Shown here: piece by piece, positions 12,526 through 33,621 of the stretch | Numbering within the stretch: position 1 is the stretch's first letter | How the letters are laid out: each line of letters begins with the position of its first letter | Virus record (IMG/VR): IMGVR_UViG_3300049629_001293 | Coordinates: 34,465-98,464 of that record | DNA: 64,000 nucleotides | Source: a virus | Taxonomy: Duplodnaviria; Caudoviricetes | Direction: 5' to 3' (one strand) | Made by a program: the position numbers and the translations under genes | Notes under the pieces: generated by a model | What the model was told of the DNA's origin: nothing | Databases searched by the model: none | The model's input: only the letters and a program-made list of their open reading frames with translations

Positions 12526-14085
12526 TCAGTTCCCTTGCCTAACTACAGAATAGATAAAATCAAACATTTCTGGATCGTTCTTAGCTAGGTAAATAGGGTT
12601 CCTGTGCATTAATTCTAATCCCATTGATAAAACCTCTGTATTATACATATTACTCCCGTACACTTTCCCCATGTAAGGATGTATCCATTTATCAACCTTG
12701 GTAACTTCGTAATCTTCGTAATTAAGTGGATGTACATCTTTTAATTTTACTATCTCCTCTCCGGCAGTTCTTCTATTATAAAAATTAAGCACCTCTTTGT
12801 GTATTAAAGGGGAACGATCCTCTATCCAATGCCCAGCTTCATGTATTAATGTTGCTTTCTCCGTGGTTCCCATGTCAATAGTCCCCGTTGGCCAGCAACA
12901 GCTTCTTTGTCCTTGTTTTATTTCACGGATAGACAATGTACTGGTTAACCCTGGAATTTCAATCATTCGAGAAAGTTCTTCTATCCCATCCTGATATTCT
13001 TTTTTTCTCTTTTTATCTAAAACTGTATTGTTAGTATTGATTTTTGTGGGATTATCCACATAGATTAATTTTCTGGCTTCTTGAAGAATTGCCTTAATTC
13101 TTTCGTTCGTCTTGGCTCCAGTGTAGTATTCAATGTTTTCATTTGTTAAAAATTGAGCTATAACCTTTTTAGGTAAAAATCGGGGTACGGGAGGGGAATT
13201 GTTTAAGTCTTCCTGTAATTTTAATAACTGCGCTCTTTTCCCTTGTGCTTCGATCATCAATGCGTCTCGTCTTCCCTTCCGTTGTTCCAATAAAATATCT
13301 AATTCTGCATCTTTAGCCTCTTTCTCCTTTCTTTCTTTCTCCCATTTCGCTCTAATCTGATCTGCTTTTATTCTAAGTTGTTCTGATATTGTTCTGAACT
13401 TCTCATCTACCTCATTAGCTTTTTTGAGACGTTCTTGTTCCTCTAGCATTACCTGTTTCTGTTTTTCTGATTTCTTTACTTCATATTCTTTCCTTTTTCT
13501 TTGTACTTCCTCCCAGTCCTTTATTAACAAGGGTTCTGTTATTTTCTTGAGTTCATCAGCTTTTTTAAGAAATTCTTTTTCTTCTTCGGGTAAAATACCT
13601 GGTTTCGTTGATCGTCTTAAATATTTTGCTCGTAATTCGTTTAATTTAAAAAGCCTTTCCTGAGAAAAATCGTCCTGAGCATTGGCTCTGCAACTTTTCT
13701 TGATATTGATACAAATACTTCCACAATTATAGGAAGTTGGCTTTACACACTGGGCTTTCTCCCTTTTCGCTCCCCCTGCATCAATTCGGTAAGAATAACC
13801 TGCTGAGAAGTCTTCCCAATTCTTTAAATCAACACCCCGACTATCAATTCTAGGGGTGAATGGTTTATAAACAACCGACTTCCTGTTTATCTCAAAGGAA
13901 AACACACGAGATCTGGTTAAGTCCTTAAACCGCCCTGTTATCTTTTCATTCTCCAGGGTTCCAGGATCGAAATCTAGCACAATGACCGGAGCATTATAGG
14001 CAAATGACATTGACAGAATTTGACCTATTGCCAATCTCATCTGAGCTTCGGAAGGTGCCATGTTAGGGGCAAAAGATTGAACCAT
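12526..14085 (-). CDS. Paralogous effector A: shared N module + Cys4 motif + coiled coil + HExxH metallopeptidase
   Basis: PSEAQMRLAIGQILS..FAYNAPV module, CVKPTSYNCGSICINIKKSC, LIHEAGHWIE...TEVLSMGLE. Confidence 0.75.
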   Translation of the reverse strand: MVQSFAPNMAPSEAQMRLAIGQILSMSFAYNAPVIVLDFDPGTLENEKITGRFKDLTRSRVFSFEINRKSVVYKPFTPRIDSRGVDLKNWEDFSAGYSYRIDAGGAKREKAQCVKPTSYNCGSICINIKKSCRANAQDDFSQERLFKLNELRAKYLRRSTKPGILPEEEKEFLKKADELKKITEPLLIKDWEEVQRKRKEYEVKKSEKQKQVMLEEQERLKKANEVDEKFRTISEQLRIKADQIRAKWEKERKEKEAKDAELDILLEQRKGRRDALMIEAQGKRAQLLKLQEDLNNSPPVPRFLPKKVIAQFLTNENIEYYTGAKTNERIKAILQEARKLIYVDNPTKINTNNTVLDKKRKKEYQDGIEELSRMIEIPGLTSTLSIREIKQGQRSCCWPTGTIDMGTTEKATLIHEAGHWIEDRSPLIHKEVLNFYNRRTAGEEIVKLKDVHPLNYEDYEVTKVDKWIHPYMGKVYGSNMYNTEVLSMGLELMHRNPIYLAKNDPEMFDFIYSVVRQGN

Positions 14086-14093
14086 GATTCTAC

Positions 14094-14393
14094 TTAATAA
14101 ACAATTTCAGACTCATCAACCACTTTCCCGTTAATTACCAAAGGAGGAGGAGCAATAGGTTGATCCATCACTGTCCCGTCAAAAGTCTTCGCCAGTTCTG
14201 TTGCAATCAACCAATCGGGGTCGGGAGTTGCAGGGGAATTAAGCCAGAAGAAAGGCGAGTCAGGGTCTATGGCTGCCAATTTCTCCATTGCTAATACATT
14301 GTTCAGGATCGAGGCATAATGGGGCGTTGAGGATGTCCAAACTCCATTCTCAATAACTGCCACTACACCGTTGATTTTGACGCGATAAGCCAT
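14094..14393 (-). CDS. Small acidic/Pro-rich protein, possible partner or inhibitor of the peptidase effectors
   Basis: 99 aa, tightly coupled between two peptidase paralogs. Confidence 0.45.
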   Translation of the reverse strand: MAYRVKINGVVAVIENGVWTSSTPHYASILNNVLAMEKLAAIDPDSPFFWLNSPATPDPDWLIATELAKTFDGTVMDQPIAPPPLVINGKVVDESEIVY

Positions 14394-14394
14394 G

Positions 14395-15561
14395 TTAACC
14401 TCTTCTAACTACCGAATAAATAAAATCAAACATATCGGGGTCTTGTTTAGCGAGTGCGACTGGATTCCTATACATTAATTCTAAACCCATTGAGAGAATT
14501 TCCGTTGACTCGTCAGGATAAACTTTTCCCATATAAGGACGCATCCATTTATCAACCTTTGTTATTTCAGTATCTCTATACGATTTGATTCCGGTTGCGT
14601 CTCGCATTTTGACCGCTTTTTCTCCCTTTGTCCTGCGATTGTAAAATTCTACAACTTCTTTCTTTATTTCTGGGACGGAGTATTCTATCCAGTGACTTAA
14701 TTCGTGAATAACTGTACCAGGGTCATCATTCCCCATTGACACGGTTTTATCTGCATTATTATAATAACTTCTCTTATCTCCCTCTGGCAAGCCTTTGACA
14801 TTAACCTTACTCGTTAAACCAGGAATTGACACCATTAAAGACAGTGATTGAATCCCCTCATCCCATCGGGATTTATTCTTTTTATCTTTTACTTTAACAT
14901 TAAGATTTGTAGGTAAGTTGACTTGAACTAATTTCCTGACTTCACTTGAAAACCTTTTGAAGTCTTCTGATGCAGCCTCTAATTCTCTTAATTTACCTTC
15001 ACTTAAAATATCAGCCAATGGCGGATTCGTTTTTAATAGTTTATCAATTTCTTTCTTTGTTCTTTTTATTAATTTAGCTAAGTATTTCTCTGGCTTTCCA
15101 TCGTCAATAGCCTTTATAATAGCACTACCTTTGTGTTTAGAAGGATCAAATTTAGATATAAAATCCTCTGACATTTTATCTAATCGTCCCCTAACTTCTT
15201 TCGCTTCTTCTAATAACCTAACTTTTCTTTGTTCTGGGGTTTCTGGTTTATTTATTGGTTTCTCTTTAGCAAGCAAGGGAATGTCGGGGGTGAAATCATT
15301 GATTGACTTTAAGTTGTCGACACCAGGAGGAATAATAGGATTGGATTTAATAGCCTTTTCTTTTGCAGACCTTCTACTAACGGCGGTAACGTAATCAATT
15401 CCTATCGCTTTTAGCTTCTCAAGCCTATCCTTTGACCTAGAATCATTCGGAACTATCCTGCAATTTTTCTTAACATTAATGCAAGATAGACCACAATTAT
15501 AGGAAGTAGTCTTTACACATTGAGCTTTCTTTTCCCTCTTGTCTTCTCTATATTTAATCAT
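14395..15561 (-). CDS. Paralogous effector B: Cys4 motif + HExxH metallopeptidase (no N module)
   Basis: YREDK, CVKTTSYNCGLSCINVKKNC, VIHELSHWIE...TEILSMGLE. Confidence 0.75.
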   Translation of the reverse strand: MIKYREDKREKKAQCVKTTSYNCGLSCINVKKNCRIVPNDSRSKDRLEKLKAIGIDYVTAVSRRSAKEKAIKSNPIIPPGVDNLKSINDFTPDIPLLAKEKPINKPETPEQRKVRLLEEAKEVRGRLDKMSEDFISKFDPSKHKGSAIIKAIDDGKPEKYLAKLIKRTKKEIDKLLKTNPPLADILSEGKLRELEAASEDFKRFSSEVRKLVQVNLPTNLNVKVKDKKNKSRWDEGIQSLSLMVSIPGLTSKVNVKGLPEGDKRSYYNNADKTVSMGNDDPGTVIHELSHWIEYSVPEIKKEVVEFYNRRTKGEKAVKMRDATGIKSYRDTEITKVDKWMRPYMGKVYPDESTEILSMGLELMYRNPVALAKQDPDMFDFIYSVVRRG

Positions 15562-16658
15562 TTTCTCCTCACAACACTATAAATAAAATCAAACATTTCA
15601 GGATCATTCTTGGCTAGATATACCGGATTCCTATACATTAATTCCATCCCCATTGATAATATTTCAGAAGCATTTTTATATTCTTTGCCCATATAAGGAT
15701 TTAACCATTTATCAACTTTTGTAACCTCATCATCTCTATAGTTCTTGTTTCCTGTAACTTCGCTCATCTTAACGGTTTTTTCCCCTGCCGTTCGCTTTTC
15801 GTAAAAAGATTCAACTTCTTCTCTAATCCCTGGCACTTTCTCCTCTAGCCAATGACTCATCTCGTGAACTACAACAGCAGGGTCAGGATTCCCCATATAA
15901 ACATTATTTGTTTTCGGTTTGTAATAGCTTCTCCCTTTTCTTTCTGGCGGAGCATTAACTATATTAACTGGAGCATCCAGCCCTGGAATTGAGATCATTT
16001 TTTGGAATACCTCAACACCTTTTTGATGGGATCTAGGATTTCCGGTTTTGACGGATGAATTCAACTTAGTTGGACTATCCACTTCTACCAATTTTCTAGC
16101 CTTCTCTAAAAAAGCCTGAGCTTCTTTGTTCGAGGTATTAAACACTCTCTCCGCCCTTGCTGATAGCCTCTCAGCCTCTTGTGGGTCTTCTTGCGACAAA
16201 CCCTTGATTTTCTTACTGTAAAGAAGTTTATTCTTTTTAAGTTGCCGAACGGGGTTCTCCGATTCAAGTAACGAGGCAGTCCCTTTCTTCGTAACAGATG
16301 TTTCGCTAACGCCCTCGTATAATTTCAGCAGTTCCTCTCGCTTGCTTGCAGCCTCCGCTTTTAGTCGTGCTTTCCTGCGAGCTTGATTGATAATCTTCCT
16401 GTCCACTGCCAACTCGGACGCTTCTGTTTTTCTGGCTTTTTCTACCACGCCAACCAATTCATCGGCCGCGGCTTTTTGCCTTAAAGACCTTGCTGACTTC
16501 GATTTTGATTGAGCATAGAATTGAGAGATTTGTTTTAACCTCTGAAGACGCGATCGCCCAAAAGATTCAGAAGGGACTTGCCGGCAATTTTTAGAGACGT
16601 TAATACAGGCGTTGCCACAGTTATAGGATGTTGGCTTTTCGCATTTGGGCTTCTTCAT
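15558..16658 (-). CDS. Paralogous effector C: Cys4 motif + HExxH metallopeptidase (no N module)
   Basis: CEKPTSYNCGNACINVSKNC, VVHEMSHWLE...SEILSMGME. Confidence 0.75.
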   Translation of the reverse strand: MKKPKCEKPTSYNCGNACINVSKNCRQVPSESFGRSRLQRLKQISQFYAQSKSKSARSLRQKAAADELVGVVEKARKTEASELAVDRKIINQARRKARLKAEAASKREELLKLYEGVSETSVTKKGTASLLESENPVRQLKKNKLLYSKKIKGLSQEDPQEAERLSARAERVFNTSNKEAQAFLEKARKLVEVDSPTKLNSSVKTGNPRSHQKGVEVFQKMISIPGLDAPVNIVNAPPERKGRSYYKPKTNNVYMGNPDPAVVVHEMSHWLEEKVPGIREEVESFYEKRTAGEKTVKMSEVTGNKNYRDDEVTKVDKWLNPYMGKEYKNASEILSMGMELMYRNPVYLAKNDPEMFDFIYSVVRRK

Positions 16659-16773: not shown

Positions 16774-18189
16774 TTAAATTTCTTCTACTTCGACATATAT
16801 TGTGCCATCTTTTTTTGTGACATTCTTAACCTTATGTTTTGCACTTTTTGGTACAACAACTTCGGACACCCACTCATAACCCTCTGGGGTAAGGTTTTGA
16901 ATAGATGCACCCGTTTTATTTATCGCCTTAAGCACAACACGTTGTCCAGCATCACCGGCTCCTCTAAAACCAGCAAATTTTTCGGCAGTCTTGGGATCGG
17001 TAGTCCATGAAGCATGGGCACCTTGATTGTCTAATACCCCATCTTTGTCCCCTTTTAGCCAATTCATAGCTTCATCTTCTGAATCAAAATTCATCCCCCT
17101 CTGTATCTCTCCCTTGTATGGGGTCGAATTTGCAAGATATTTAGAAATTAAATTTGCTCCTACGTTTGGTCTATTTTCTTTTTGTGATCTTCTAATTGCT
17201 TCGGAATTATAAACCCACGATCTGACATATTTAACAGTCGCCTTAGCCTCGCCTTCTGTTATTTCAATTCCTTTCTTCCTGGCCATCTCATAGTATTCTT
17301 GTGGGTTTTTAGGTGTACTTTCATGAGTCCCATCACCAATCAAATTTGTTGGCTCAGGCTTCTTGGTCTCTGGTTCAGGTTTTTTAGTTTCTTCCTTTGG
17401 TTTAGATGCTTCTTTCTTTGGTTTAGATGCTTCTTTCTCTGGAGATTGAGTGGAACTTGGCGCTGTCGTTTTTTGGGATTTTATGTAGTTAGCAACACCA
17501 TCTTTTATTTTTGATAATTGAGTGCCACTAACCCCGGCTTTCGTTGCAGCTTCTTCTAGTTTAAGAACACTAACTCCTGCTTTCTTTGCCAAACCTTCTA
17601 TCTGAGCAATGGAAAGAGTTTTTGCTTTTTCTTTCGTCTGTTTTTCTGCTGGTTTTTTCGTTTCAGCATTAGGATCTGTTTTAGCTGTTTTAGTTACTTC
17701 TGATGCCTTGGGTTTTTCTGTTACTTTGGTTGTTTTTGCATAATCCTTCCCTACTTCCTTTAATTTACTAAGCCTCTCCTGTGAATTACTATCTTCCGTG
17801 CTGGATTTGCAGTTATTCTTAATATTGATACAGGCTTTCCCACAATTATACGCTGTCGGTTTAACACACTGTGGCTTCTTATTACCTCCTATCCCCGCAT
17901 CTACCCGATAGGAGTAGCCACTAGAGAATTCCTCCCAGTCATCTACGCTATCCATCCGTCCTGGGGTGTAAGGTTTAAAAGTGACTGATTGCCCTTTGAT
18001 ATTAAATGAAAAAATACGGGGACGGGTTGCATCCTTGAATTTGCCTTCAAACTCCCCTTGATCATTTACCGAAAAATCCAATATCACCACCGGAGCATTA
18101 TAGGCAAATGGTTGAGACAGAGTTTGGGCGATCGCCAACTTCATCTGTGGCTCGGTTGGCGTGGCATCTTTTCTAGTCGTTGAACTCAT
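16774..18189 (-). CDS. Paralogous effector D: N module + Cys4 + ADP-ribosyltransferase (R-S-E clade)
   Basis: YKGEIQRG (R), HASWTTD (S), WVSEVVV (E). Confidence 0.7.
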   Translation of the reverse strand: MSSTTRKDATPTEPQMKLAIAQTLSQPFAYNAPVVILDFSVNDQGEFEGKFKDATRPRIFSFNIKGQSVTFKPYTPGRMDSVDDWEEFSSGYSYRVDAGIGGNKKPQCVKPTAYNCGKACINIKNNCKSSTEDSNSQERLSKLKEVGKDYAKTTKVTEKPKASEVTKTAKTDPNAETKKPAEKQTKEKAKTLSIAQIEGLAKKAGVSVLKLEEAATKAGVSGTQLSKIKDGVANYIKSQKTTAPSSTQSPEKEASKPKKEASKPKEETKKPEPETKKPEPTNLIGDGTHESTPKNPQEYYEMARKKGIEITEGEAKATVKYVRSWVYNSEAIRRSQKENRPNVGANLISKYLANSTPYKGEIQRGMNFDSEDEAMNWLKGDKDGVLDNQGAHASWTTDPKTAEKFAGFRGAGDAGQRVVLKAINKTGASIQNLTPEGYEWVSEVVVPKSAKHKVKNVTKKDGTIYVEVEEI

Positions 18190-18200: not shown

Positions 18201-20150
18201 CTATACTTCCTCAGCTTCAACAATAATCCGTCCGTTTTCTTCCTTGACACTTTTAACTCGATGGCGAGTGTCTTTTAGCACCATAACTTCGTCTTCTTCT
18301 TTGATCCTGCTCAAATTCCTAATAGACACACCTGATTTATTAATGGTTTTAATGACGACGGGATACCTTTTTTCCTCAATAAAGAAATCGTCCGAAAAAT
18401 TCTTTGCTGTTTTAAGGCTAGATGACCAAGAGGCGTGAGCACCTTGATTATCTAGCACCCCATCCTTGTCGCCTTTAGTCCAGTTTAAAGCCTCCTCTTT
18501 GGTTGCAAAATGAATCCCTCGGTAAACTTCGCCTTCGTATGGGGTTGAGTTCCTGACATAATTAGAAATCCGATTGGCATCCTCGTTTTCTTCCCCTGCT
18601 TTTTGATCGACTCGGATGTCAGTGGCATCCCTTGTCCATTTATAGATGGCTGTAGTGGTGGCTGCTGCCTCCTTCTTAGAAATATTTACTCCTGCTTTTT
18701 CCAGTGCTTCACGATACTCATCGGGGGTTGAGGGCATGGATTCGTGGTCGCCCTTCCCTACTAAATTAAGGTTTTTAGGTTTTTCTTCGGGTTGTTTAAC
18801 CGCCTTTTCCTCGGATTCTTTTTGGGTTTTAGTTATTTCTGGTGATGGTTCAGGCATTTTCTTTTCCTTGTTAGGAGAAACTTCTTCTGTCTCAACGATC
18901 AAAACACCATCTTCGTACACAACCTTTTTAACCCGATGGCGAGTGTCTTTGATGACCACTACCTCATCTTCCGTATCAAAGGTGCTTAAATTTTTGATAG
19001 AGGCACCTGACTTATTAATTGTTTTGATAATGATAGGTTGTGATGTCTCATCGAACGCATTGTCAACAGCAAATTCTCTCGCTTTATCCCAATTAGAAGT
19101 CCAAGATGCGTGGGCATTTTGATTGTCCAATATTCCGTCTTTGTCTCCTTTTGCCCACTCCAGTGCTTCTTCTGTTGATTCAAGGGAGATACCTCGGTAG
19201 ATTTCACCTTTGAATGGCGTTGAACTCTTGACGTAATCAGTGATCCGGTCGGCAACGAGGCTGTATTTCCCTGCTTTTTGAGATTCTCTAATATAAGAGG
19301 CATCTTCTGTCCACTCTTTAACGGCTCCGGTAATCTTTATAGCATCGTCATAAGAGATGGGATTACCCGATGCTTTCATTGCTTCAAAGTACCCGTATGC
19401 GTCGCCAGGAACGGACTCATGATCCCCCTTCCCTACTAAATTAAGAGGCTTGGGTTCGTTTTCAGGTTCTTTAAGGGTTTCTGTTTGATCTTCACTCTTT
19501 ACAGCTATTTTAGCAGCTTTCTTCCCTTCTTCAAAGTCAGATTCTTTCCCTTTTTTGCTAGGGGGAATTTCCTTTATTGTTTCTGGGATTTTATCTATTT
19601 CTGGTGGTTTTTCTACCTCTTTCTTGGTTTTTGTAGTTGATTTAGGATTGGATTTCTTGGCTTCTTTAGCGTAATCAATACCAGCAGCTTTCAATTTCTC
19701 TAAACGATCCTTTGACTGAGCGTCATCGGGGTTTGATTTACAATTATTATTAATATTTATACAGGCTTTCCCGCAATTATATGCGGTGGGTTTAACGCAT
19801 TGGGGTTTCTTTTTGTCTCCTGCCTTGCCTTTTGCTTTAGCCGTTTTAGCCTTGGCATCAAAACGGAAGGAATAGCCTAATGAGAACTCCTCCCATTGTT
19901 CTACTGCATCGCCCGAATCCATCCGTCCTGGGGTATAAGGTTTGAAGTTAACGGTATTTCCATCTAACTCAAAATCAAACACCCTCGGACGGGCAGAATC
20001 CTTAAATCTCCCAGATATTTTACCCGTGTCATCTACCTTAAAGTCCAGCACGTCCACTGGGGCGTTATAGGCAAAAGGAAGAGCAAGAGTCTGGGCGATC
20101 GCTGCTTGCATTTGTACTTTTGTTGGGGCTGTTTTAGTCTCTATGCTCAT
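18201..20150 (-). CDS. Paralogous effector E: N module + Cys4 + two tandem ADP-ribosyltransferase domains
   Basis: GEIYRG/ASWTSN/TEDEVVV and GEVYRG/ASWSSS/EEDEVMV. Confidence 0.75.
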   Translation of the reverse strand: MSIETKTAPTKVQMQAAIAQTLALPFAYNAPVDVLDFKVDDTGKISGRFKDSARPRVFDFELDGNTVNFKPYTPGRMDSGDAVEQWEEFSLGYSFRFDAKAKTAKAKGKAGDKKKPQCVKPTAYNCGKACININNNCKSNPDDAQSKDRLEKLKAAGIDYAKEAKKSNPKSTTKTKKEVEKPPEIDKIPETIKEIPPSKKGKESDFEEGKKAAKIAVKSEDQTETLKEPENEPKPLNLVGKGDHESVPGDAYGYFEAMKASGNPISYDDAIKITGAVKEWTEDASYIRESQKAGKYSLVADRITDYVKSSTPFKGEIYRGISLESTEEALEWAKGDKDGILDNQNAHASWTSNWDKAREFAVDNAFDETSQPIIIKTINKSGASIKNLSTFDTEDEVVVIKDTRHRVKKVVYEDGVLIVETEEVSPNKEKKMPEPSPEITKTQKESEEKAVKQPEEKPKNLNLVGKGDHESMPSTPDEYREALEKAGVNISKKEAAATTTAIYKWTRDATDIRVDQKAGEENEDANRISNYVRNSTPYEGEVYRGIHFATKEEALNWTKGDKDGVLDNQGAHASWSSSLKTAKNFSDDFFIEEKRYPVVIKTINKSGVSIRNLSRIKEEDEVMVLKDTRHRVKSVKEENGRIIVEAEEV

Positions 20151-20251: not shown

Positions 20252-20252
20252 A

Positions 20253-21611
20253 CTATTTAGTTACTTGAGCAAAAGACCTCATTTTGCCCGCCGCGTTTTG
20301 GATTCCGTCGCCATATCTTTTATTGATATCAGAACCAGGAGGATATTCCCCTCTGCCTACGCCATTAAGAGTAAACAAATCATTCTCGTGTAAGTCAAGC
20401 ATGGCTCTATTAAAATCACCCCGACCAACCTTATCCCCCATTGCGTCACGGATCTTGTATATAGGGACAAGACCTCCATGATTCCCTTCTTTGTCTATGT
20501 CTTTCAATAGTGTAGATATCTCTTTCTGTATTTCTTTTTGATCAGACATCTGCCCTGGTTTGCGCTTAAATTCTTGTTTTGCTTTTTCAATAGCTTTTGT
20601 GTCTTTTATAACAAAAGATTGACGATTCCTGTTGAACATATCGGTAATTCCGTCCGAAGGATCAAATTGTCCGTCTGGATTCATATCCTCTTTTTTTAAC
20701 GTTCCAGTTTCTAGTTCGATTCCCTCGTCATCTGTACCTGCCTTTAGTGTCCATTTATCAAAGTCTTCTTTACTCACCCTGTCTTTTAATTCATGTCTCA
20801 TTTGTGCTATGTTTACTCGATCTCCTTGTCCTAACTCAAACGCAACCCTAGCTGCTTCTTTGACAATCTCCTTTTTAAAGGTGTCATAATCCTTTATTGG
20901 TTCGTCACTATAAAAGGGATTTGCCTTGGATTTAGGACTAGATTTAGCTTTGGGTTTAACTTCGGGCTTTGGCTCGATCTTGGCTTCTGGTTCTGCCGTT
21001 TTCTTTGTTGCCAATTTTTGACCAGTAGGCTTTTTACTCTCTGCTTTAGGCTTGGTTTGGGGCTTTTCTACAGTCGTTTTTGCTGTTTTCGCGTAATCTT
21101 TCCCAATTCCTTCTAACTTTTTAAGCCTGTCTTTTATTGTGGGATCATTGGTTTTGATTTTGCAGGTTTTCATGATGTTGATGCAAGCTGCACCACAATT
21201 GTAAGCTGTCGGCTTAACGCATTGAGGCTTTTTTTTGCCACCTACTCCCGCATCAACACGGAAGCCATACCCTGCTGAAAATGCCTCCCATTCTTGGACA
21301 TCTTCCTCTGATTCTAAGCTGTCCATTTTGCCAGGTTTATAAGGCTTATAGGCTACGGACTCCCCATCTAGGGTAAAGGAAAACACCCGTGGACGTGCCG
21401 CATCTTTAAATACTCCGGTAATATTGCCATTCTCGGCAACATCAAATTTAAGCACAACAACTGGGGCGTTATAAACAAAATCCATTGACAAGGTTTGGGC
21501 AATAAGTAACCTCATTTGAGCTTCGGTTGGTGCAGTACCTCCGCCACCATCCCCAACTAATACTTCATCTTCGTCAACACGGAACAAAGAACTTGGTTTT
21601 GTTTTTAACAT
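20253..21611 (-). CDS. Paralogous effector F: N module + Cys4 + two tandem helical (winged-helix-like) domains
   Basis: Repeats RVNIAQMRHELKDRVSKEDFDK and LVPIYKIRDAMGDKVGRGDFNR. Confidence 0.6.
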   Translation of the reverse strand: MLKTKPSSLFRVDEDEVLVGDGGGGTAPTEAQMRLLIAQTLSMDFVYNAPVVVLKFDVAENGNITGVFKDAARPRVFSFTLDGESVAYKPYKPGKMDSLESEEDVQEWEAFSAGYGFRVDAGVGGKKKPQCVKPTAYNCGAACINIMKTCKIKTNDPTIKDRLKKLEGIGKDYAKTAKTTVEKPQTKPKAESKKPTGQKLATKKTAEPEAKIEPKPEVKPKAKSSPKSKANPFYSDEPIKDYDTFKKEIVKEAARVAFELGQGDRVNIAQMRHELKDRVSKEDFDKWTLKAGTDDEGIELETGTLKKEDMNPDGQFDPSDGITDMFNRNRQSFVIKDTKAIEKAKQEFKRKPGQMSDQKEIQKEISTLLKDIDKEGNHGGLVPIYKIRDAMGDKVGRGDFNRAMLDLHENDLFTLNGVGRGEYPPGSDINKRYGDGIQNAAGKMRSFAQVTK

Positions 21612-24897: not shown

Positions 24898-26432
24898 TAT
24901 CTAGTAACCCCCATGCGTGTTTTTCCTATCGTTAAAGGCTGCTTATAGGCGTGCACCCGTCGTCTTTCCCCTTCGGTGAGTTCATCTCCGTAGGTAGATT
25001 GAGCAGGTCTTTTGAGCATCGAATCAAGGCGATGGGAGAACTCCTCTGAGTCTCCATCGTCTCCATCGTCTCTATCTTCTTCCTCCTCGTCATCCCCTTC
25101 TTCTTTATCACCTGGATCGGTGGGGGAAGAATCGTAATTCTCCTGAACGTAGGCAAAAACCCCGTCTACATAAGAATCGGATCGGAACGTCAAGTCCATA
25201 TTGGGTTCGATTTCAGCTAACAAAGTGCGTTTGATGTCGCTAGTAGAGAAGCTACTATCAAACCGAGCGTCAGAGAACCCTGGCAACAAACTGTCGGCTT
25301 CCTTCCATATCGCCAAAAGATCCCCGACCGAATCACCCCGACAAGCACTCTCATCTTCGTCGTTGCTATCAACACGAGGCTTGGACTTTTTTTTCTTTTT
25401 GGAAGTCGTAGTTTCTTCTTCCTCTGCAACATCCCATTCTTCCATCATTTCTTCTTCTTCATTGTCCTCCTCTTCCATCATTTCTTCATCTTCGGGAACG
25501 GGAGGCATCATTTTCTTTTTGCCTCCATCAACGCGGACGTACTGCCCCATGTCATTCCGGTAATAACCTAATTCACCAAGGACATTATCGGCATTGTCTA
25601 CGATGATCTCTAGGTTATCTAACCGGAACTGGTAATTTTCCCGTGCGGCTTCTAGCTTCCGGTTCTCCCGACTCGTAGTATCAAACCGTGTAACAAGCGA
25701 ATCGTGGCGTTCCTTTAATTCTTTCAATTCACGGAATCGAGTACCGCTAATGGAAGCGAAAGATTCAGGGATTCCTGAATACTCAACTCCATCGCATCTA
25801 ACTATTGCCATACGCTGTTCATTATCTCCATTATCATTGGTTTTGTTAGGGTTACTAGGGTTTTCGATGACTTGCCCTGCGACAGCTTGTCCAATCCCCG
25901 CAGCACTATCTAATCGGAGGCGAACATCTCCCCCTGCCCTTCCTCGGCTCGTCAAAGCCAAATGGTTGGCACGGACATTAATCTGTTCCCTGTCATAGTG
26001 TTGCCCATTCCACACCCCTTCCCCTTGCTTGATGTCGCAGGTATATCCAGCAGATAGTTGTTCCTTTTCCCTTGCATCAATTAGGGCGATCGCCTTAGCA
26101 TCAAAAAACGACACCAAGCCTTTGATCACCCCTTCAGTCTTGTCATAATAAGCAGAAGAATCAGTCATCCCTACCGTGTAATCCTTGTAGCTTTCGCTAT
26201 TAAGAAGTCCAACATAGGGATGTTCTATCACCAGGGGGAGGAGTTTGAAACTCTCTACTGTGGCCAGTTCTGCATTGGTTTCCGGTCTCCTGAGTTCGTG
26301 GACTATGGAGCCATCAGGCTGACGATACTCCAACACCCCGTCACAACAAAAAGACCCCTCACAATGGAGACGACCATCCTCAGTTCTTATTACCCTAAAT
26401 TTAGTTGGAGCATCGAGCCTGATTTCAACCAT
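24897..26432 (-). CDS. DUF2213 prohead protease/scaffold fusion
   Basis: GVLEY...ELR.PE, HP, QLSAGY.C, YD..Q.N...NHLAL..RGRAG..VRL.LDS; acidic scaffold-like tail. Confidence 0.9.
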   Translation of the reverse strand: MVEIRLDAPTKFRVIRTEDGRLHCEGSFCCDGVLEYRQPDGSIVHELRRPETNAELATVESFKLLPLVIEHPYVGLLNSESYKDYTVGMTDSSAYYDKTEGVIKGLVSFFDAKAIALIDAREKEQLSAGYTCDIKQGEGVWNGQHYDREQINVRANHLALTSRGRAGGDVRLRLDSAAGIGQAVAGQVIENPSNPNKTNDNGDNEQRMAIVRCDGVEYSGIPESFASISGTRFRELKELKERHDSLVTRFDTTSRENRKLEAARENYQFRLDNLEIIVDNADNVLGELGYYRNDMGQYVRVDGGKKKMMPPVPEDEEMMEEEDNEEEEMMEEWDVAEEEETTTSKKKKKSKPRVDSNDEDESACRGDSVGDLLAIWKEADSLLPGFSDARFDSSFSTSDIKRTLLAEIEPNMDLTFRSDSYVDGVFAYVQENYDSSPTDPGDKEEGDDEEEEDRDDGDDGDSEEFSHRLDSMLKRPAQSTYGDELTEGERRRVHAYKQPLTIGKTRMGVTR

Positions 26433-27530: not shown

Positions 27531-29168
27531 TCAAGAACTCGGTTTTTTTCCAAATCGGTAAGTTTTTTGTAGTTCATCTAGTACCTGTTCATATACTTCT
27601 TTTATTATTTTAGCAGAACCTTTTTGATTATTGGCTAATTTTTCTGCTGCTTGATTCAAAAGTGTCGAAACTTTTCCTGTTAGCATTTTTTCTTGATCAA
27701 ATGCCCCTAGTGCTTTTTCTGCAATATCAGCAATTTCACTTGACTCCTCTACGTTGATTTTATTTCCTGCTTTGGCTAAATCTGAGGCAGCTTTTGACTT
27801 CCCAACAGTTGAGAATAAACGCTTTTCCCTTTGCAACTGTCTTTTTATAGCAGATTGAATCTGGGCTTTTTCAATAGCCAAAGAGCGAGATTCAGGGGAA
27901 AATCCCAACAAATCAAATAAGCCACCCTGAGATTCGGTTATTGTTGGGGCATTTGTTACCATATCGGACAATTCCTCTATAGTGTCATTAGTGATCTTTT
28001 TACCTTTTTTCTCTTCTTTCTCCACTAACTCTAGTAAGTCTTGTTGTTGGCGGTGATCTTTTATTTTAGAACCAATTACAACAGCCCTTTGTTCGGGGAT
28101 TTGACCCTGTACCACTCTATTAAATAGAGAGTCACTTAGACTAGCTAAAGCCAGCCCGTCCTCAGCTATTTTCTCCCTCATGGGTACGCCTTTTTTCTCT
28201 AGGTCTTGTTTTGTTAAACCAGAATCTCTAAAGAATTTAGCTGCATCCTGAGCATTGCCTCGACCTTCTGCGATATTTGTTAATGCACCAATAGCACGGG
28301 CTTCTTCTGGAGATTTAGCATCAATTAATTTTACGGTGACGGATTCAGCATTTAGTTTTTTAGCTAATGCAAGTCGGTTGTGACCGTTCACGACATAAAC
28401 ACCGCCATCTTTGGGATCTTGCCAAACTTGAAGGATGCCACCCAGGTTAGAATCCCACGTTTTAACTCCCGACAAACTCCCGACTTCTCCCGACTTGGTT
28501 TGCTCTCCAATGATCTTGTATTGAAATCTTTTAGGGTCAACCTGGATTTTACTGGGGTCGGCTTCTGCTATTCCTGAAGACAAGACTTGATCCGCCCCCA
28601 ACCGAGAAGCAGCATCATCCCACTTTCCTGCTGGTTTCGGTGTCAGCTTGTTATTCTCCTGCCTCTTAGCCGGATCATCCTGAGCCTCCTTAAACCCTCC
28701 CGCCATAGCTTTAACTTTGTCCAGCTTTTCCTGGGAAGGTTTATCAGGGGGGTCTGACTTGCAGTTCTTATTTAAGCTAATACAAGCCTTCCCGCAGTTA
28801 TAGGAAGTATTGCCACACTTAGGTTTTTCCTTCCTAACGGTCTTAGCTACATCGAATCGGTAGCAATACCCCTTTGAGTAGTCTTCCCACGCCACGGGGT
28901 CAACGTCGAGGCTGTCGGTTCGTTTCCAGGTAAACGGTTTGAAGGCAATGGAATCCCCAATCTCAAACTCAAAAACACGGGATCTAATGGCGTCCTTAAA
29001 CCGTCCTTTGATGATGTTTTTGTTGCCTACTTCAAAATCCAGAACGATAACCGGAGAGTTGTAGGCAAATGGCATCGACAAGACTTGAGAAATACCAAGT
29101 TTCATCTGCACTTCTGTTGGGGCAGCATCAAAGCTAGGGGGATTTTGACGGTTTAAGGTAGTGACCAT
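27531..29168 (-). CDS. Paralogous effector G: N module + Cys4 + ParB-like domain
   Basis: PTEVQMKLGISQVLSMPFAYNSPV module, CGNTSYNCGKACISLNKNC, VDPKRFQYK...YVVNGHNRLALAK. Confidence 0.7.
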   Translation of the reverse strand: MVTTLNRQNPPSFDAAPTEVQMKLGISQVLSMPFAYNSPVIVLDFEVGNKNIIKGRFKDAIRSRVFEFEIGDSIAFKPFTWKRTDSLDVDPVAWEDYSKGYCYRFDVAKTVRKEKPKCGNTSYNCGKACISLNKNCKSDPPDKPSQEKLDKVKAMAGGFKEAQDDPAKRQENNKLTPKPAGKWDDAASRLGADQVLSSGIAEADPSKIQVDPKRFQYKIIGEQTKSGEVGSLSGVKTWDSNLGGILQVWQDPKDGGVYVVNGHNRLALAKKLNAESVTVKLIDAKSPEEARAIGALTNIAEGRGNAQDAAKFFRDSGLTKQDLEKKGVPMREKIAEDGLALASLSDSLFNRVVQGQIPEQRAVVIGSKIKDHRQQQDLLELVEKEEKKGKKITNDTIEELSDMVTNAPTITESQGGLFDLLGFSPESRSLAIEKAQIQSAIKRQLQREKRLFSTVGKSKAASDLAKAGNKINVEESSEIADIAEKALGAFDQEKMLTGKVSTLLNQAAEKLANNQKGSAKIIKEVYEQVLDELQKTYRFGKKPSS

Positions 29169-30138: not shown

Positions 30139-30162
30139 AAAATAATTTCTATACAAGAAAAT
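30139..30162 (-). promoter_or_regulatory. 24-bp element, copy 2
   Basis: Identical to 26506-26529, with the same 74-bp offset from the downstream ATG. Confidence 0.55.
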
Positions 30163-30750: not shown

Positions 30751-30825
30751 TGTCACACCAAAACATAATAGAAGATTAATACAAAACACTGTGATAAAAA
30801 TTCAGTGTGATCAAATTCAGTGTGA
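30751..30825 (+). repeat. 75-bp inverted repeat, left copy (contains TTCAGTGTGA sub-repeats)
   Basis: 70/75 identical by manual alignment to the reverse complement of 55437-55511. Confidence 0.85.
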
Positions 30826-30967
30826 TCACAGGTTAAGGTTATATTTTGGAAAGACAAATATACAGGGTCACTAAAATGAGTGTGTAGCCTTTAAAGAAGA
30901 ACACTCTCCTCCAGTAGATATAATGGCGGATTTTTTTTGAGGGAGGGAGGGGCCGGATTTTGCTATA

Positions 30968-31378
30968 ATGAAAACCCAGAGAGAAAGAATCTTTCAGGGG
31001 TGTCCCACAATCAAAAATAAAATCATGCCCCCGTCTCTAATCTCATCAAATCCACCGTGTCCGCATTGTGGATCTCTAAACCTGGAAGAGCAGAAAACCA
31101 AACCCCCTTACTACAAGAAACTGGTCTGCTTGGATTGTGACCAATTTGTGCGGTGGATACCTCGTCCACAGGGAGTTGAGAAAACCCAGGAGGTACTCAA
31201 CCAACTAGAATCAATTGAGAGGGCAAAACTAAGCCCGTGGCAGCGTGAGTTTGTAGAGAAGATGATAGAAGTATGCAACGAAGCATTAGAGGCGGAGAAA
31301 GCCGTAAAATTGACCCCTCGACAAATTGATCAAATTGCCGAGTTATCCTTCCGAGTGGATTCTATGTTGAGAAGATAG
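30968..31378 (+). CDS. Zn-ribbon protein
   Basis: CPHC...CLDC motif. Confidence 0.6.
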   Translation: MKTQRERIFQGCPTIKNKIMPPSLISSNPPCPHCGSLNLEEQKTKPPYYKKLVCLDCDQFVRWIPRPQGVEKTQEVLNQLESIERAKLSPWQREFVEKMIEVCNEALEAEKAVKLTPRQIDQIAELSFRVDSMLRR

Positions 31379-31626
31379 CTACTAAGTCGCAAATCTTGAT
31401 AAGCGGCGATCGCTAAATCTATCTAAAAACACGGGACAACGATTAGTTTTGGTAGTGTCATCCAAGTGCCAATTGTTACCGAGTTACCTTGACCCATACA
31501 TAGATTTACGTAGCCCGTAAATCTGGAACTGACAAAGATTTCTTGTGACGGTTTAGACAACTTAGTCAACCCTAGTAAAATAAAATAGGTTGGCTAATTT
31601 GTATTCAGAAACTAATTAATTTTAAA

Positions 31627-33621
31627 CTAATCTAATTGAGCTTGGACATTGATTCTATTTGCCAGATCTGTTAATATCTTTCCTTGATAAACTTCGTCAA
31701 CTTCCTCTGAGTCTTCTATATCTTGGCGATATTGGTTTAACTCCGTAGGATCGCACTTCTCTACTCCCCCAAAACGATCTAATCCGGCATGGTAGTAATA
31801 GCAATCGCGTACTTCTTTTGGGGAATCAAAACCCAAAAAATACTTTGTTTCGTCAATCTCCCCTGTTGCTGTGTTAAGTTGCCGAACCTTCCAGAGACTT
31901 GGTGAGTTCGGGTTTTTGATGTAAACGTCGATTGCTTTCGCGTCCTCCGCGTGTCCGTAGCTGCGTCTAATATGCCCATACCCTGCCTTCATTGTTTTGT
32001 TATAGCGAAGATCCCCTTTGTCGTGAGTGACCCCAATAGATAGCCCGTGCCAATTAAGAACCCGTTTTATTGGGGTGTAAGCAGCACTGTCCATTTGAGT
32101 TATAGGTTCTTCTTCAACAGGAGCAGGTTCTTCGGTGGGTGGGGCAGCTTCCTCTCCTCCTAACGCCCCCAGATCAAAACCACCGAGGGAGTTTGCTTGT
32201 TCTTCTGCTTTCTTCTTGGCTTCTTCCCATGCTTTTTGATCAATGTTAAATTCTGGCCACCAATCGGAGTTAGAAGGTACTGTCCGAGCTTCGTTGGGCG
32301 TAATAAATCCGGCTTGAATCCCTGAAGCTAAGGCTTGAATATCAGATAAGCGTCCAGAGCGAAGATCCTCAATGGTCATTCTCAAAATTGAGGGATACTG
32401 CCTTTGATAGTCGTCGGGGATTTTGCCTTTTGTGGGGCCGTCTTTGGCTAAGAAGATATAGCGATCAAGAATAGCCGCACTAGGATCTAAATTCTCTCCC
32501 TGGTACTCTGCTACCGAGTTAGCGTAGTTTATTTGGGTTTCCTTGCCATCACGCCCCAACCCACCAGGGCTTTCCCCCCAAACTATCGTGTGAGGCATTC
32601 CAGAGGCCCCCGTGACCCCATCCTTTTGTACTTGCACAAGTGAATCCATCCCTGCGAGGGGACGGGCGTTCCAGTTGAATTGTTCACGGGAGTCATGGAG
32701 AACCATGCCATATAAATCAAACATTAATCGAATTGATTTCATGGTTTGCTTAATAGCTGCAATACTTTCTTCATCAGATGCCATCATCAGTTCCCGTAGT
32801 CCTTCAAAAGAATGCTGTAAAACCGATTGGGTTTTAATCAATTCGCCTACTGCATTGAGTCCATTTGTATAGTTTTTGTAATACTTCCAAACCTCGTCAA
32901 AGACACTCAACCCCCATCCATTATTGTAAGAAATCATCCAATCATCAGGCATTAATGCCCCATTAAACCGAAGGATTCGAGACCGATGAATAAGGCGATC
33001 ATCCTGCTTAGAGTTTGTTTCGTTAAACAGTAATTTTTGTTTTATTTGTTGGTCAATTGTTAGGATTTCATAATGTTCAATATCATCAAGGTCAAATATA
33101 CTCGCAGCCGTTCTCATCGAAGGAGCAACTTGCCATCGGTGACGAACAATTAACCCAGAAATTGATTTAATCTTGCCTTCGTTAACAGGTTCGGAATAAT
33201 GTCTCCCGTCATTAATCTTGAGAATAATAACTGTCCCGCCGTGAGAACGAGAGAACTGTAAGGCTTTTCTAAATTGTGATCTAGTTTTTAGTTTTTCGTG
33301 ATAAGCATAGTAATCGCGGACTAATTTAGAACCCACCTTACTAGAGAAATCATCCCCCAAGGATAACTGCCACATCTTTTGGGTTGACGAAGATGGAAGG
33401 CTCCACGCTATCCGCTTTAAGATCGCGTCCGCCAAGCAATTCTCGACCTGTTGTTGGGAGAAAGGTTGGATTCTTCCCGTTACAGGGAGAGGATTTCGCA
33501 TCGAATTTGCGTCGGCACTCTCCGCCAACGCTTGCATCATGACGCGAGAGTCTTCCCGATAACGGTTCGCAATCTCTGTGGTGGTTTCTTTTTTTGTTGT
33601 CTCGGATGATTGGGCAGTCAT
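31627..33621 (-). CDS. Portal protein (DUF1073 family) with a C-terminal inorganic-pyrophosphatase-like domain
   Basis: SR.HGG, IHRSRILRFNG, GWGLSV, GASGMP.T..WGESPGGL, G.ITPNEAR; C-terminal YGHI...DVYI...VRQ...GEIDETK..LGFDS. Confidence 0.85.
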   Translation of the reverse strand: MTAQSSETTKKETTTEIANRYREDSRVMMQALAESADANSMRNPLPVTGRIQPFSQQQVENCLADAILKRIAWSLPSSSTQKMWQLSLGDDFSSKVGSKLVRDYYAYHEKLKTRSQFRKALQFSRSHGGTVIILKINDGRHYSEPVNEGKIKSISGLIVRHRWQVAPSMRTAASIFDLDDIEHYEILTIDQQIKQKLLFNETNSKQDDRLIHRSRILRFNGALMPDDWMISYNNGWGLSVFDEVWKYYKNYTNGLNAVGELIKTQSVLQHSFEGLRELMMASDEESIAAIKQTMKSIRLMFDLYGMVLHDSREQFNWNARPLAGMDSLVQVQKDGVTGASGMPHTIVWGESPGGLGRDGKETQINYANSVAEYQGENLDPSAAILDRYIFLAKDGPTKGKIPDDYQRQYPSILRMTIEDLRSGRLSDIQALASGIQAGFITPNEARTVPSNSDWWPEFNIDQKAWEEAKKKAEEQANSLGGFDLGALGGEEAAPPTEEPAPVEEEPITQMDSAAYTPIKRVLNWHGLSIGVTHDKGDLRYNKTMKAGYGHIRRSYGHAEDAKAIDVYIKNPNSPSLWKVRQLNTATGEIDETKYFLGFDSPKEVRDCYYYHAGLDRFGGVEKCDPTELNQYRQDIEDSEEVDEVYQGKILTDLANRINVQAQLD

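Follow-up and report, generated by a model that had tools for sequence, protein, structure and literature searches.

A recurrent R-x-D motif in the head module of a Planktothrix phage relative, a likely recognition motif of its DUF2213 head-maturation protease

The head module and its recurrent motif

We analyzed the head region of a relative of the Planktothrix phage PaV-LD, found in the IMG/VR record IMGVR_UViG_3300049629_001293 (Duplodnaviria; Caudoviricetes; 98,464 bases). The window, i.e., the whole stretch analyzed, comprises 64,000 nucleotides (positions 34,465 to 98,464 of the record), and coordinates are given within it. Between positions 12000 and 34000, 61% of the window aligns to PaV-LD with 88.6% nucleotide identity. 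According to Pfam and PHROGs assignments, positions 12526-33621 form a head module with every gene on the minus strand. One of its genes encodes a protein of 511 residues matching Pfam PF09979 (DUF2213) over residues 16-173 (101.6 bits, cut-off 22) and PHROG 530, which is annotated as “head maturation protease”. Past approximately residue 175 the protein is scaffold-like, with a long helix and acidic/basic linkers, and we refer to it as the protease-scaffold. The module further encodes a major capsid protein, a minor capsid or cement-type protein, a portal and seven proteins, effA to effG, which have the motif C-x6-7-C-G-x2-C-I-x6-C (Cys4) in common and are called cargo in the following (Table 1).

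A short motif, R-x-D followed by a small residue, recurs in the scaffold, capsid, portal and cargo proteins, and this recurrence is real and far above chance. An original prediction, made from the letters of the window, had taken the motif for a prohead-protease cleavage code, with cuts after Asp which release Cys4-containing fragments inside the head. On the evidence presented below, which for this phage is indirect, we consider it likely that R-x-D-small is the recognition motif of the phage’s own DUF2213 head-maturation protease, and that this enzyme cuts after Asp.

R-x-D sites in the protease-scaffold exceed chance

About a dozen R-x-D sites had been predicted for the DUF2213 protein, and all 11 named strings were found in its translation, along with three additional ones (VRCDG at residue 212, YRNDM at 292, DRDDG at 454). 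The sites are indeed located mostly in the scaffold part, 13 of 14 at or beyond residue 173. Compared to an expectation of 3.9, R.D (the dot being any residue) occurs 14 times, and R.D[SA] occurs 8 times with 0.5–0.6 expected; neither count was reached in any of 500 composition-preserving shuffles. To remove the bias of a motif picked by eye, all 400 gapped pairs a.b were scored in the protease-scaffold, and R.D topped the ranking (z 5.1).

In the whole genome, counted over 150 open reading frames (ORFs; 29,536 amino acids) from a crude ORF caller, R.D[SA] is found 26 times (expected 9.9). A comparison of head and non-head proteins, proposed along with the motif, places the excess in the head proteins: besides the protease-scaffold (8 vs. 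0.5), ten other head and cargo proteins contain 12 sites with 2.1 expected, and the remaining 139 ORFs are at 6 vs. 7.8. However, ten of these 12 sites correspond to two homologous positions in five paralogous N-modules (see below) and are, therefore, not independent events. The portal (2 R.D vs. 2.7–2.8 expected) and the single cargo proteins, each taken as a whole, have no excess; in these proteins, the placement of the sites is unusual, not their number.

The recurrence could simply reflect chance or the composition of Arg- and Asp-rich proteins, since the motif was defined after inspecting the sequence and the portal and single cargo proteins show no overall excess. We give this explanation practically no credence: R.D ranked first of 400 pairs without prior choice, the rest of the genome is at expectation, and the shuffling results, which are the same in the protease-scaffold and in each of 18 homologs, refute it. 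A general “.D[SA]” rule was also considered and dropped as too unspecific, being only about twofold enriched in the clade (274 vs. 139).

The motif is conserved while its surroundings vary

Conservation was assessed in a close set of twenty IMG/VR loci (85–100% protein identity), PaV-LD and the window, which together yield 17 distinct protease-scaffold sequences. Both R and D are kept at 13 of the 14 sites in all 17 sequences, and the neighboring residues vary. For example, site 353 reads KPRVDSND, KPRADGDD or KSRADGDD, and site 365 reads ACRGDS, DYRGDS or NYRGDS. Judging from the sequences, RDDG at 454-457 is probably not a site.

In 18 full-length homologs with 32–62% identity, R.D occurs 198 times (56.8 expected) and R.D[SA] 124 times (9.0 expected); 0 of 500 shuffles reached the count in any of the 18, and R.D was again first of the 400 gapped pairs (z 18.8). 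The residue after Asp in these 198 motifs is Ser in 81, Ala in 43, Gly in 27 and Asp in 17 cases, hence Ser, Ala or Gly in 151. A weaker excess was detected in 19 more distant DUF2213 proteins (37 vs. 8.3). Among DUF2213 proteins of cultured phages, basic-x-D-small is enriched in TLS gp33 (12 vs. 1.1), Rtp (7 vs. 1.1), Listeria phage B054 (7 vs. 1.2), S-CBS4 (6 vs. 1.1) and CL131 (6 vs. 1.3). Based on the pattern across cultured phages, the common denominator of the DUF2213 family, which matches 636 of 50,697 phage records, seems to be Asp with a small residue after it, and Arg at P3 looks like a lineage preference (P1 and P1′ denote the residues before and after the cut).

The DUF2213 domain resembles assemblin-type proteases

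An AlphaFold model based on a 39-sequence alignment has a predicted local distance difference test score (pLDDT) above 90 for residues 11-170. When this predicted model was compared to PDB using Foldseek, the top ten rows were all herpesvirus proteases or T4 gp21. The best match is the Epstein-Barr virus (EBV) protease 1o6e (E 1e-3, probability 1.00); others are the proteases of pseudorabies virus (PRV), Kaposi’s sarcoma-associated herpesvirus (KSHV) and human cytomegalovirus (HCMV), and T4 gp21 (5jbl). The template modeling (TM) scores are 0.33–0.42 on target length, at 12–16% sequence identity. His71, Ser127, His157 and Arg165 are invariant in the 39 DUF2213 sequences. The same holds for Asp175 of the LRLD/S site just past the protease domain, and nearly so for Asp7, Asp214 and Asp272. 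Thus, going by the model, the DUF2213 domain is a credible protease with an assemblin-like fold. The model places site 173-176 at the border of a disordered stretch (177-204) and site 353 inside another (306-364); RCDG at 212-215 may be structural rather than a cut site. A non-exhaustive search of the literature on DUF2213/COG3566 and prohead protease sites found no stated cleavage rule for DUF2213.

Two side observations concern the same protein family. The linker following LRLDS (window 25830-25900, residues approx. 178–200) consists of a pentapeptide repeat, GQAVA or GQAIA, with approximately 2 to 10 copies among relatives which are otherwise 93–100% identical (loci L003-L010); linker length is, therefore, hypervariable. 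Further, a large group of DUF2213 proteins (P0046-P0119) has a fused NUDIX domain (PF00293), in some cases together with PF14815, so the protease-scaffold chain is able to carry an enzyme passenger itself.

Sites at the ends of capsid and portal

The capsid protein starts with MMNFSGTTRLDADEIGTFF and, as predicted, opens with TTRLDAD, the Arg being residue 9. From the alignment of capsid N-termini we predict a cut after D11 with loss of an 11-residue leader. The homologous site is identical in PaV-LD and reads EIRMDAPT in CL131, TSRLDAEE in L036, ELRTDSPG in L038, QTRADALN in L040, QIRLDAPT in G003, EIRMDAPT in G001, EIRLDAPT in G005 and IKFDAEQ in Rtp. The capsids of two distant uncultured phages, L023 and L027, contain TRFDSAEDA and MRFDSAEDA behind leaders of 32 and 37 residues, directly preceding the conserved AEDAS..FARELD start of the capsid fold; a third capsid of this group has MNFDAAEDA, without Arg. 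Since the site is fixed while the leader varies from 4 to 37 residues, it resembles a maturation cut. In TLS gp36, KND/AS is found at residues 30-33. Some capsids do not fit well, namely S-CBS4 with RMDE and L041 with RKDDA, and B054 has nothing convincing.

A literature search with the Rtp capsid N-terminal strings returned nothing relevant, the available text on the T1-like phage Sfin-1 contains no processing data, and that on Pam3 gives no capsid N-terminus. In the XM1 paper, as far as available, 30 N-terminal capsid residues are reported as unseen. The virion mass spectrometry of CL131 was, according to the available text, searched for complete tryptic peptides only, so such mature ends could not show up.

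All portal strings of the original prediction were recovered: YREDS (R22), QMDS (509-512) and YRQD (R632). REDS, a candidate N-terminal trimming site, aligns with RNDG in L041, KTDS in Rtp, RADS in L028 and RHDV in L027. QMDS and YRQD bracket the Pfam match of an InPase-like domain (residues 509-632). At the position of QMDS, the PB1 portal has GMEP, and the homologous tail of the PB1/Pa193 portals (residues 529-765) lacks density in cryo-electron microscopy (cryo-EM), as described in the available text of the Pa193 paper.

An experimental anchor in PB1-like phages

An Edman N-terminus has been published for ORF23, the major structural protein of phage KPP12 (PMC3474789, legend of figure 1 in the available text). 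The peptide maps to residue 65 (S65), directly after FRSGSAMD (AMD64). The DUF2213 protein of KPP12 holds RAMDSAEV, so AMDS is common to its capsid and its scaffold. For a phage of the DUF2213 family, this provides direct evidence of a capsid cut which follows the Asp of a tetrapeptide also occurring in the scaffold. P1 = Asp and P1′ = Ser gain support for the family, but the Arg does not. In the PB1 translations, the tetrapeptide occurs in capsid (SAMD/SNFTAP, 61-70), portal (VAMDSA, 73-78) and scaffold (RAMDSA). PDB entry 9b40 chain G, the Pa193 scaffolding protein gp24 (DUF2213), matches residues 46-168 (E 6e-10). As reported in the available text of the Pa193 paper, the capsid was modeled from residue 66 and the portal from residue 94, and no portal peptides before residue 94 were found in LC-MS (liquid chromatography-mass spectrometry). 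Further, the mature capsid retains a bound scaffold fragment in its interior, and the authors are undecided whether gp24 is cut. Neither the Pa193 nor the KPP12 paper, in their available text, links a cut to DUF2213 or states a motif.

In the head-gene regions of PB1 and KPP12, the DUF2213 protein is the only protease by annotation, whole genomes not having been scanned for HExxH. This bears on the possibility that the sites are cut by another enzyme, i.e., a host protease or an HExxH cargo peptidase (effA, effB, effC), and that DUF2213 is merely a scaffold. Three HExxH proteins are encoded beside the head genes, no demonstration of DUF2213 catalysis was found in a non-exhaustive literature search, and in the available texts the Pa193 authors name their DUF2213 protein scaffolding and the XM1 authors proposed a different protease. 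On the other hand, the KPP12 capsid is cut after Asp with DUF2213 as sole annotated candidate in the head-gene region, motif density tracks DUF2213 proteins across phages of very different hosts, and the predicted fold is assemblin/gp21-like with invariant His, Ser and His. We regard another enzyme as very improbable.

Cargo proteins carry the motif between N-module and Cys4

Five of the seven Cys4 proteins (effA, effD, effE, effF, effG) carry an N-module of approximately 100 residues ahead of Cys4, and their bodies differ. In these five, the N-module is followed by two R/K-x-D-[S/A/V] sites. The predicted strings were found in the translations, before the N-module as RKDA (effD), RVDE (effF) and SFDA (effG), and after it as RMDS (effD, effE), RIDS (effA) and RTDS (effG), with KMDS as the corresponding site in effF. 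RVDA, RIDA, RFDA and RFDV follow about 20 residues further on, and Cys4 begins 10–20 residues after them. effB starts with MIKYREDK and thus contains the predicted YRED.

In an alignment of 15 N-modules, the invariant residues outside the fold are D80 of the first site, R95 and D97 of the second, and the four Cys. Structure prediction of the N-module yields a helix and a four-stranded sheet (residues 8-77, pLDDT 83–89), and in the effD model residues 78-108, containing both sites, have pLDDT below 50. A fold search with the N-module returned non-specific alpha+beta matches only, the best (cystatin-like and others) with a Z of 6.1, below a meaningful level. The N-module was found in 86 proteins, each with 52% identity or more across the aligned part; by sequence, it appears to be confined to relatives of Planktothrix phages. 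Its fusion partners are ADP-ribosyltransferase (ART), GNAT (PF13673), ParB-type (PF02195) and HExxH domains as well as bodies without assigned type. One N-module protein distinct from effG, P0193, carries Pfam ParBc. In Pfam scans of the cargo bodies, nothing except the ART domain of effE exceeded the cut-off. The N-module could direct the proteins to the prohead in the manner of T4 leaders, or hold toxic enzymes inactive. A location of the cargo in the head is suggested by the labels of depositors, who named the PaV-LD ortholog of effB, ORF081R, “virion structural protein” and the ortholog ORF085R “minor virion protein”.

The two ART-like domains of effE are arranged in tandem (G-D-H-E-S ... 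Y-R-G ... H-A-S-W ... E-D-E-V), and in its relatives a single chain combines a GNAT domain with either one ART domain or two. In L041, a relative with 33% identity, two proteins (6402-8198 and 13489-14061 of that locus) have another leader, P-x-D/E-F-V-x-G-Y-A-D-x-M-R-x-D-[A/S], preceding a degenerate Cys motif. One leader type can thus be exchanged for another, but R-x-D at the leader end is kept.

Cys4 modules with and without a DUF2213 protein

In six genomes or loci of the clade, R/K-x-D is located within 25 residues upstream of 29 of 31 Cys4 motifs (background 22%), and the two exceptions are proteins starting with MKKP[KQ]C. CL131 gp048 (1,811 amino acids) contains four Cys4 motifs with R-x-D before each. 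A profile of the Cys4 region, built without the upstream part, matched 362 representative proteins among 1.84 billion. From these, a wider sample of 52 proteins was taken out of 150 listed, in which R/K-x-D is located upstream of 121 of 142 Cys4 motifs, at most 20 residues away (background 14.8%). P3 is Arg in 109 of the 121, and Asp is followed by Ala in 52, Lys in 20, Ser in 13, Phe in 10 and Arg in 10.

Viral contigs were also scanned with a DNA pattern, and 8 of 17 matches (7 of 15 stretches, on 5 contigs) are true Cys4 modules. Three of the five contigs (G001, G003, G005) have DUF2213, one is a 24%-complete fragment, and the fifth, G002, is a complete genome of 118.6 kb with terminal repeats. 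In G002, no DUF2213 was found with the Pfam profile or our own family profile, and the Peptidase_S78 profile gave no match. The Peptidase_S77 profile did not match G002 either, but its control found nothing anywhere, making this search uninformative. The upstream motif is present in 6 of 7 (G003), 6 of 7 (G001) and 5 of 6 (G005) Cys4 modules, and the capsids of these three genomes start with I-R-[LM]-D-A-P-T. In contrast, none of the 20 Cys4 modules of G002 (in 19 proteins) has an upstream R/K-x-D, and 14 of them start between residues 4 and 10 of the protein they belong to, with the pattern M-x-x-x-K-C. Pooled over eight DUF2213 genomes or loci, the motif is found within 25 residues upstream in 46 of 51 modules vs. 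0 of 20 in G002 (Fisher p 2e-13, the genomes being related and not phylogenetically independent).

Consequently, the Cys4 module does not need R-x-D. The contrast suggests that the Cys4 knuckle needs a free N-terminus to function, which would be made by cutting where an Asp-specific protease exists; the simplest reading of these sequences is that G002 encodes this end directly. The predicted release of Cys4 fragments thus gains support.

As a side observation, many of the 362 proteins contain 3–7 Cys4 copies, with lengths of up to 3,641 amino acids. In the giant proteins among P0207-P0311, the Cys4 module heads the single units; in many units, a hydrolase-like G-H-S-x-G-G motif is repeated, and Ala/Gly-rich stretches of transmembrane-like character are located just past the knuckle. 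Precomputed annotations contain no Pfam model for the Cys4 family.

Weighing cleavage against the alternatives

For the cleavage code after Asp as a whole, enrichment, conservation, the Asp at P1 in KPP12 and the assemblin-like model speak in favor. Nevertheless, several observations weigh against it. Sites 242, 249 and 270 lie inside a predicted 65-residue helix and site 212 at a beta-turn; together with the family-wide D7, D175, D214 and D272, a structural role would fit this placement, too. R.D is absent from 5 of the 19 distant DUF2213 proteins, basic-x-D-small does not occur in the KPP12 scaffold (0 vs. 1.0 expected), and the KPP12 cut has Ala, not Arg, at P3, in a capsid that cannot be aligned with that of the window at the site. 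Portal-internal cuts at QMDS and YRQD, two strings of the original prediction, are not supported beyond the clade, as these strings are kept only in PaV-LD. Concerning the cargo, effC has no upstream R.D site and effB has R-E-D-K. In the wider Cys4 family, Lys, Phe or Arg follows Asp in 40 of the 121 linked motifs and the gap between Asp and the first Cys is mostly 3–6 residues; given this narrow spacing and the non-small next residue, R-x-D could belong to the Cys4 module itself. Finally, the G002 contrast involves a single DUF2213-negative lineage.

Some of these points would be expected if R-x-D had a structural or binding role in the scaffold and in the N-terminal arms of capsid and portal, e.g., in a salt bridge or a capsid contact, and stayed uncut. 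The (nearly) invariant Asp residues and the predicted helix and beta-turn positions agree with this, as does the scaffold fragment which persists in the mature Pa193 capsid. However, many sites are located in disordered linkers, where R, D and the small residue are kept while the surroundings drift. One tetrapeptide would have to serve in unrelated contexts, i.e., scaffold, capsid and portal leaders, cargo linkers and polyprotein joints, and the KPP12 capsid is truly cut after the Asp of a motif common to its scaffold. The loss of the motif exactly where Cys4 modules are N-terminal would also be left unexplained. We therefore consider a purely structural motif quite unlikely.

The second alternative concerns the cargo only: R-x-D near the first Cys might be integral to the Cys4 module, as N-terminal cap or strand, with the N-modules staying on. 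The sharp peak of the Asp-to-Cys spacing (121 motifs in 52 diverse proteins), the frequent Lys, Phe or Arg and the presence of the motif even with only 15–25 residues ahead would all be in line with this. Within the clade, however, the spacing is 10–20 residues of variable, low-complexity, basic and predicted disordered sequence. Moreover, 20 of 20 G002 modules lack the motif, five cargo proteins have a second R/K-x-D-S site about 20 residues upstream, and each internal Cys4 of the giant proteins has the motif ahead, as would be the case for polyprotein joints. In our judgment, this alternative is unlikely.

Proposed maturation pathway

Returning to R-x-D-small as the recognition motif of DUF2213, we infer that these sites are cut, that DUF2213 is the enzyme, and that the cargo is contained in the head and ejected. 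The prohead would assemble from capsid protein with its 11-residue leader, portal, protease-scaffold fusion and cargo enzymes. The protease would then release itself from the scaffold at LRLD175/S, and the scaffold would be chopped at about ten more sites, the short peptides leaving the shell. The capsid protein would be trimmed after D11 and the portal probably after D24. Five cargo proteins would lose their N-module of approximately 100 residues by cuts in the disordered linker, at R-x-D/S and again at R-x-D/A. Mature cargo would begin with a short basic tail and the Cys4 knuckle, followed by an ADP-ribosyltransferase, HExxH peptidase or other domain.

A broader proposal, on which we are evenly divided, regards DUF2213 as a very large family of Asp-specific head proteases in which P3 drifts, being Arg in cyanophages, Lys in T1-like phages and Ala-Met in PB1-like ones. 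Packaged enzymes would widely carry the Cys4 knuckle as an N-terminal handle which needs a free mature N-terminus. Where the protease is present, the knuckle could be preceded by removable modules or arranged in giant polyproteins of up to 7 Cys4 units cut in the head; where the protease is absent, each unit would have a gene of its own, starting at the knuckle.

Comparison with known systems

Motif-directed head maturation is textbook knowledge for T4 and the giant phiKZ-like phages. T4 gp21 breaks the scaffold down into small peptides, shortens the capsid protein (gp23) and strips N-terminal leaders off packaged proteins, including an ADP-ribosyltransferase; its substrates with capsid-targeting leaders are the gp22 core, IPI-III and Alt. 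The system described here resembles gp21, whose structure 5jbl is among the best fold matches, as an assemblin-type head protease with a P3-x-P1(acidic) motif. However, P1 would be Asp instead of Glu and P3 Arg instead of Leu/Ile (T4 motif I/L-x-E, in the available text of PMC12991175). Further, the protease is fused to the scaffold and belongs to PF09979, not PF03420; the cargo leader is a folded module of approximately 75 residues plus linker, not a peptide of 10–20 residues, and the predicted mature cargo begins with a Cys4 knuckle.

Herpesvirus assemblin has a His/Ser/His triad, is located at the N-terminus of the scaffold and releases itself by a cut just past its domain; its sites are Ala/Ser. 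The best structural matches (EBV, PRV, KSHV, HCMV) are of this type and the D175 site is placed equivalently, but the sites differ and sequence identity is only 12–16%.

In SPN3US and phiKZ, N-terminal propeptides with lengths between 20 and 254 residues are removed from numerous head and ejection proteins at a short motif. A long propeptide is cut repeatedly, P1′ is preferably Ser, and cutting takes place after Glu, e.g., E-124 in gp54 (available text of PMC10052503). Propeptide loss at a short motif and Ser at P1′ would be similar here. In contrast, phiKZ gp175 and SPN3US gp245 are not fused to a scaffold, belong to another family and come from the giant-phage size class. In summary, the proposed system follows the logic of T4 and phiKZ/SPN3US, with a short P3-x-P1(acidic) motif, a fragmented scaffold and removal of cargo leaders, and differs in protease family, Asp at P1, scaffold fusion and Cys4-headed cargo.

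The PB1-like phages (KPP12, PB1, Pa193) have the same Pfam protease-scaffold fusion and a tetrapeptide common to capsid, scaffold and portal. Differences are the motif A-M-D-S without Arg, a capsid leader of 64 residues compared to the 11 predicted here, and that no Cys4 cargo set was seen in the head-gene stretch examined. Polyvalent proteins, described by Iyer et al. 2017 (PMC5512222), are products of late genes with ART, ParB-like and metallopeptidase domains, for which packaging and processing have been proposed. The variable enzyme domains in late-gene context, i.e., ART in effE and HExxH in effA, effB and effC, are similar, but that work, in its available text, proposes self-processing by built-in metallopeptidase domains. 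A search of this text for the terms “cysteine” and “Planktothrix” found neither, and no R-x-D motif was noticed in it, although no search aimed at the motif was made.

T1-like and PB1-like phages, as well as many phages of cyanobacteria and the gut, have DUF2213 as their protease-scaffold. If the proposed recognition rule is true, the mature ends of capsid, portal and cargo become predictable from sequence, and mass-spectrometry searches for such ends can be guided. It would also explain missing cryo-EM densities of therapeutic PB1-like phages and mark the enzymes which a bloom-controlling cyanophage brings into its host, here three ADP-ribosyltransferase domains and three HExxH peptidases. 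Should the broader proposal above hold, sequence would be enough to read off directly the mature cargo carried in virions by thousands of phages not in culture.

Table 1. Genes, candidate sites and domains of the head module in the window (residue numbers refer to the respective protein).
Feature	Position	Strand	Support or remark
effA: N-module, Cys4, coiled coil, HExxH domain	12526..14085	-	PHROGs 33618 and 16619
effA RIDS, residues 79-82, after N-module	13840..13851	-	
effA RIDA, residues 100-103, 10 residues before Cys4	13777..13788	-	
effA Cys4, residues 113-132	13690..13749	-	
effB: no N-module, REDK 5-8, Cys4 15-34, HExxH domain	14395..15561	-	
effC: starts MKKPKC, Cys4 6-25, no leader, HExxH domain	15558..16658	-	
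effD: N-module, Cys4, one ART-like domain	16774..18189	-	PHROG 16619 E 7e-104
effD RKDA, residues 6-9, before N-module	18163..18174	-	
effD RMDS, residues 78-81, start of disordered linker	17947..17958	-	D80 invariant, S81 nearly (15 N-modules)
effD RVDA, residues 95-98, 10 residues before Cys4	17896..17907	-	R95, D97 invariant (15 N-modules)
effD Cys4, residues 108-127	17809..17868	-	four Cys and G117 invariant
effE: N-module, Cys4, two ART domains	18201..20150	-	Pfam PF01129 (ART) E 6e-6, 26.1 bits (cut-off 22.3)
effE RMDS, residues 76-79	19914..19925	-	
effE RFDA, residues 96-99	19854..19865	-	
effE Cys4	19740..19799	-	
effF: N-module, Cys4, C-terminal domain without assigned type	20253..21611	-	
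effF RVDE, residues 11-14	21570..21581	-	
effF KMDS, residues 95-98	21318..21329	-	
effF RVDA, residues 118-121	21249..21260	-	
effF Cys4	21162..21221	-	
Major capsid protein	23094..24047	-	Pfam PF09950 E 9e-27, 94.4 bits (cut-off 26.8); PHROG 264
Capsid RLDA, residues 9-12	24012..24023	-	homologous R/K-x-D-[A/S] at capsid N-termini of relatives
Minor capsid or cement-type protein	24067..24897	-	Pfam PF23982 (XM1 gp53 minor capsid) E 2e-12; 0 R.D
Head-maturation protease (DUF2213, residues approx. 11-172) fused to scaffold (approx. 205-511), 511 residues	24897..26432	-	PF09979 E 6e-29; PHROG 530 E 3e-71
Protease-scaffold RLDA, residues 5-8, disordered N-terminal tail	26409..26420	-	D7 nearly invariant family-wide; pLDDT 30 for residues 1-10
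His71, candidate catalytic residue	26220..26222	-	invariant, 39 sequences
Ser127, candidate nucleophile	26052..26054	-	invariant, 39 sequences
His157, candidate third triad residue	25962..25964	-	invariant, 39 sequences
RLDS, residues 173-176, candidate site for self-release of the protease from the scaffold	25905..25916	-	D175 invariant in 39 sequences; disordered 177-204 follows
RCDG, residues 212-215, at predicted beta-turn	25788..25799	-	D214 nearly invariant; strands 208-213 and 216-222
RHDS, residues 242-245, in long scaffold helix	25698..25709	-	sequence, model
RFDT, residues 249-252 (RFDA in PaV-LD)	25677..25688	-	sequence
RLDN, residues 270-273	25614..25625	-	D272 nearly invariant family-wide
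RNDM, residues 292-295	25548..25559	-	sequence
RVDG, residues 300-303	25524..25535	-	sequence
RVDS, residues 353-356, disordered acidic/basic linker	25365..25376	-	R and D kept, flanks vary; pLDDT <50 for 306-364
RGDS, residues 365-368	25329..25340	-	R, D, S kept; flanks vary
RFDS, residues 390-393, between two predicted helices	25254..25265	-	sequence, model
RSDS, residues 417-420	25173..25184	-	sequence
RDDG, residues 454-457, acidic low-complexity run	25062..25073	-	not conserved among close relatives
RLDS, residues 468-471	25020..25031	-	sequence
effG: N-module, Cys4, C-terminal domain matching PHROG 21	27531..29168	-	PHROG 21 E 2e-56
effG SFDA, residues 12-15	29124..29135	-	
effG RTDS, residues 83-86	28911..28922	-	
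effG RFDV, residues 104-107	28848..28859	-	
effG Cys4	28761..28817	-	
Portal with C-terminal InPase-like domain	31627..33621	-	PF06381 E 4e-46, 157.9 bits (cut-off 33.8); PF18823 E 3e-26
Portal REDS, residues 22-25, candidate N-terminal trimming site	33547..33558	-	aligns with sites of other portals
Portal QMDS, residues 509-512, start of InPase-like domain, weak candidate	32086..32097	-	kept in PaV-LD only
Portal RQDI, residues 632-635, after InPase-like domain, weak candidate	31717..31728	-	RQDA in PaV-LD, no wider support
Portal InPase-like domain, residues 509-664	31627..32097	-	PF18823 E 3e-26

Neighboring genes

Right after the cargo genes, at window positions 6683-11728, a tape-measure-like protein of 1,681 amino acids is encoded. 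The stretch from the head-completion genes to the tape measure has no recognized major tail tube gene. PaV-LD is termed “tail-less” in the available text of PMC10343443.

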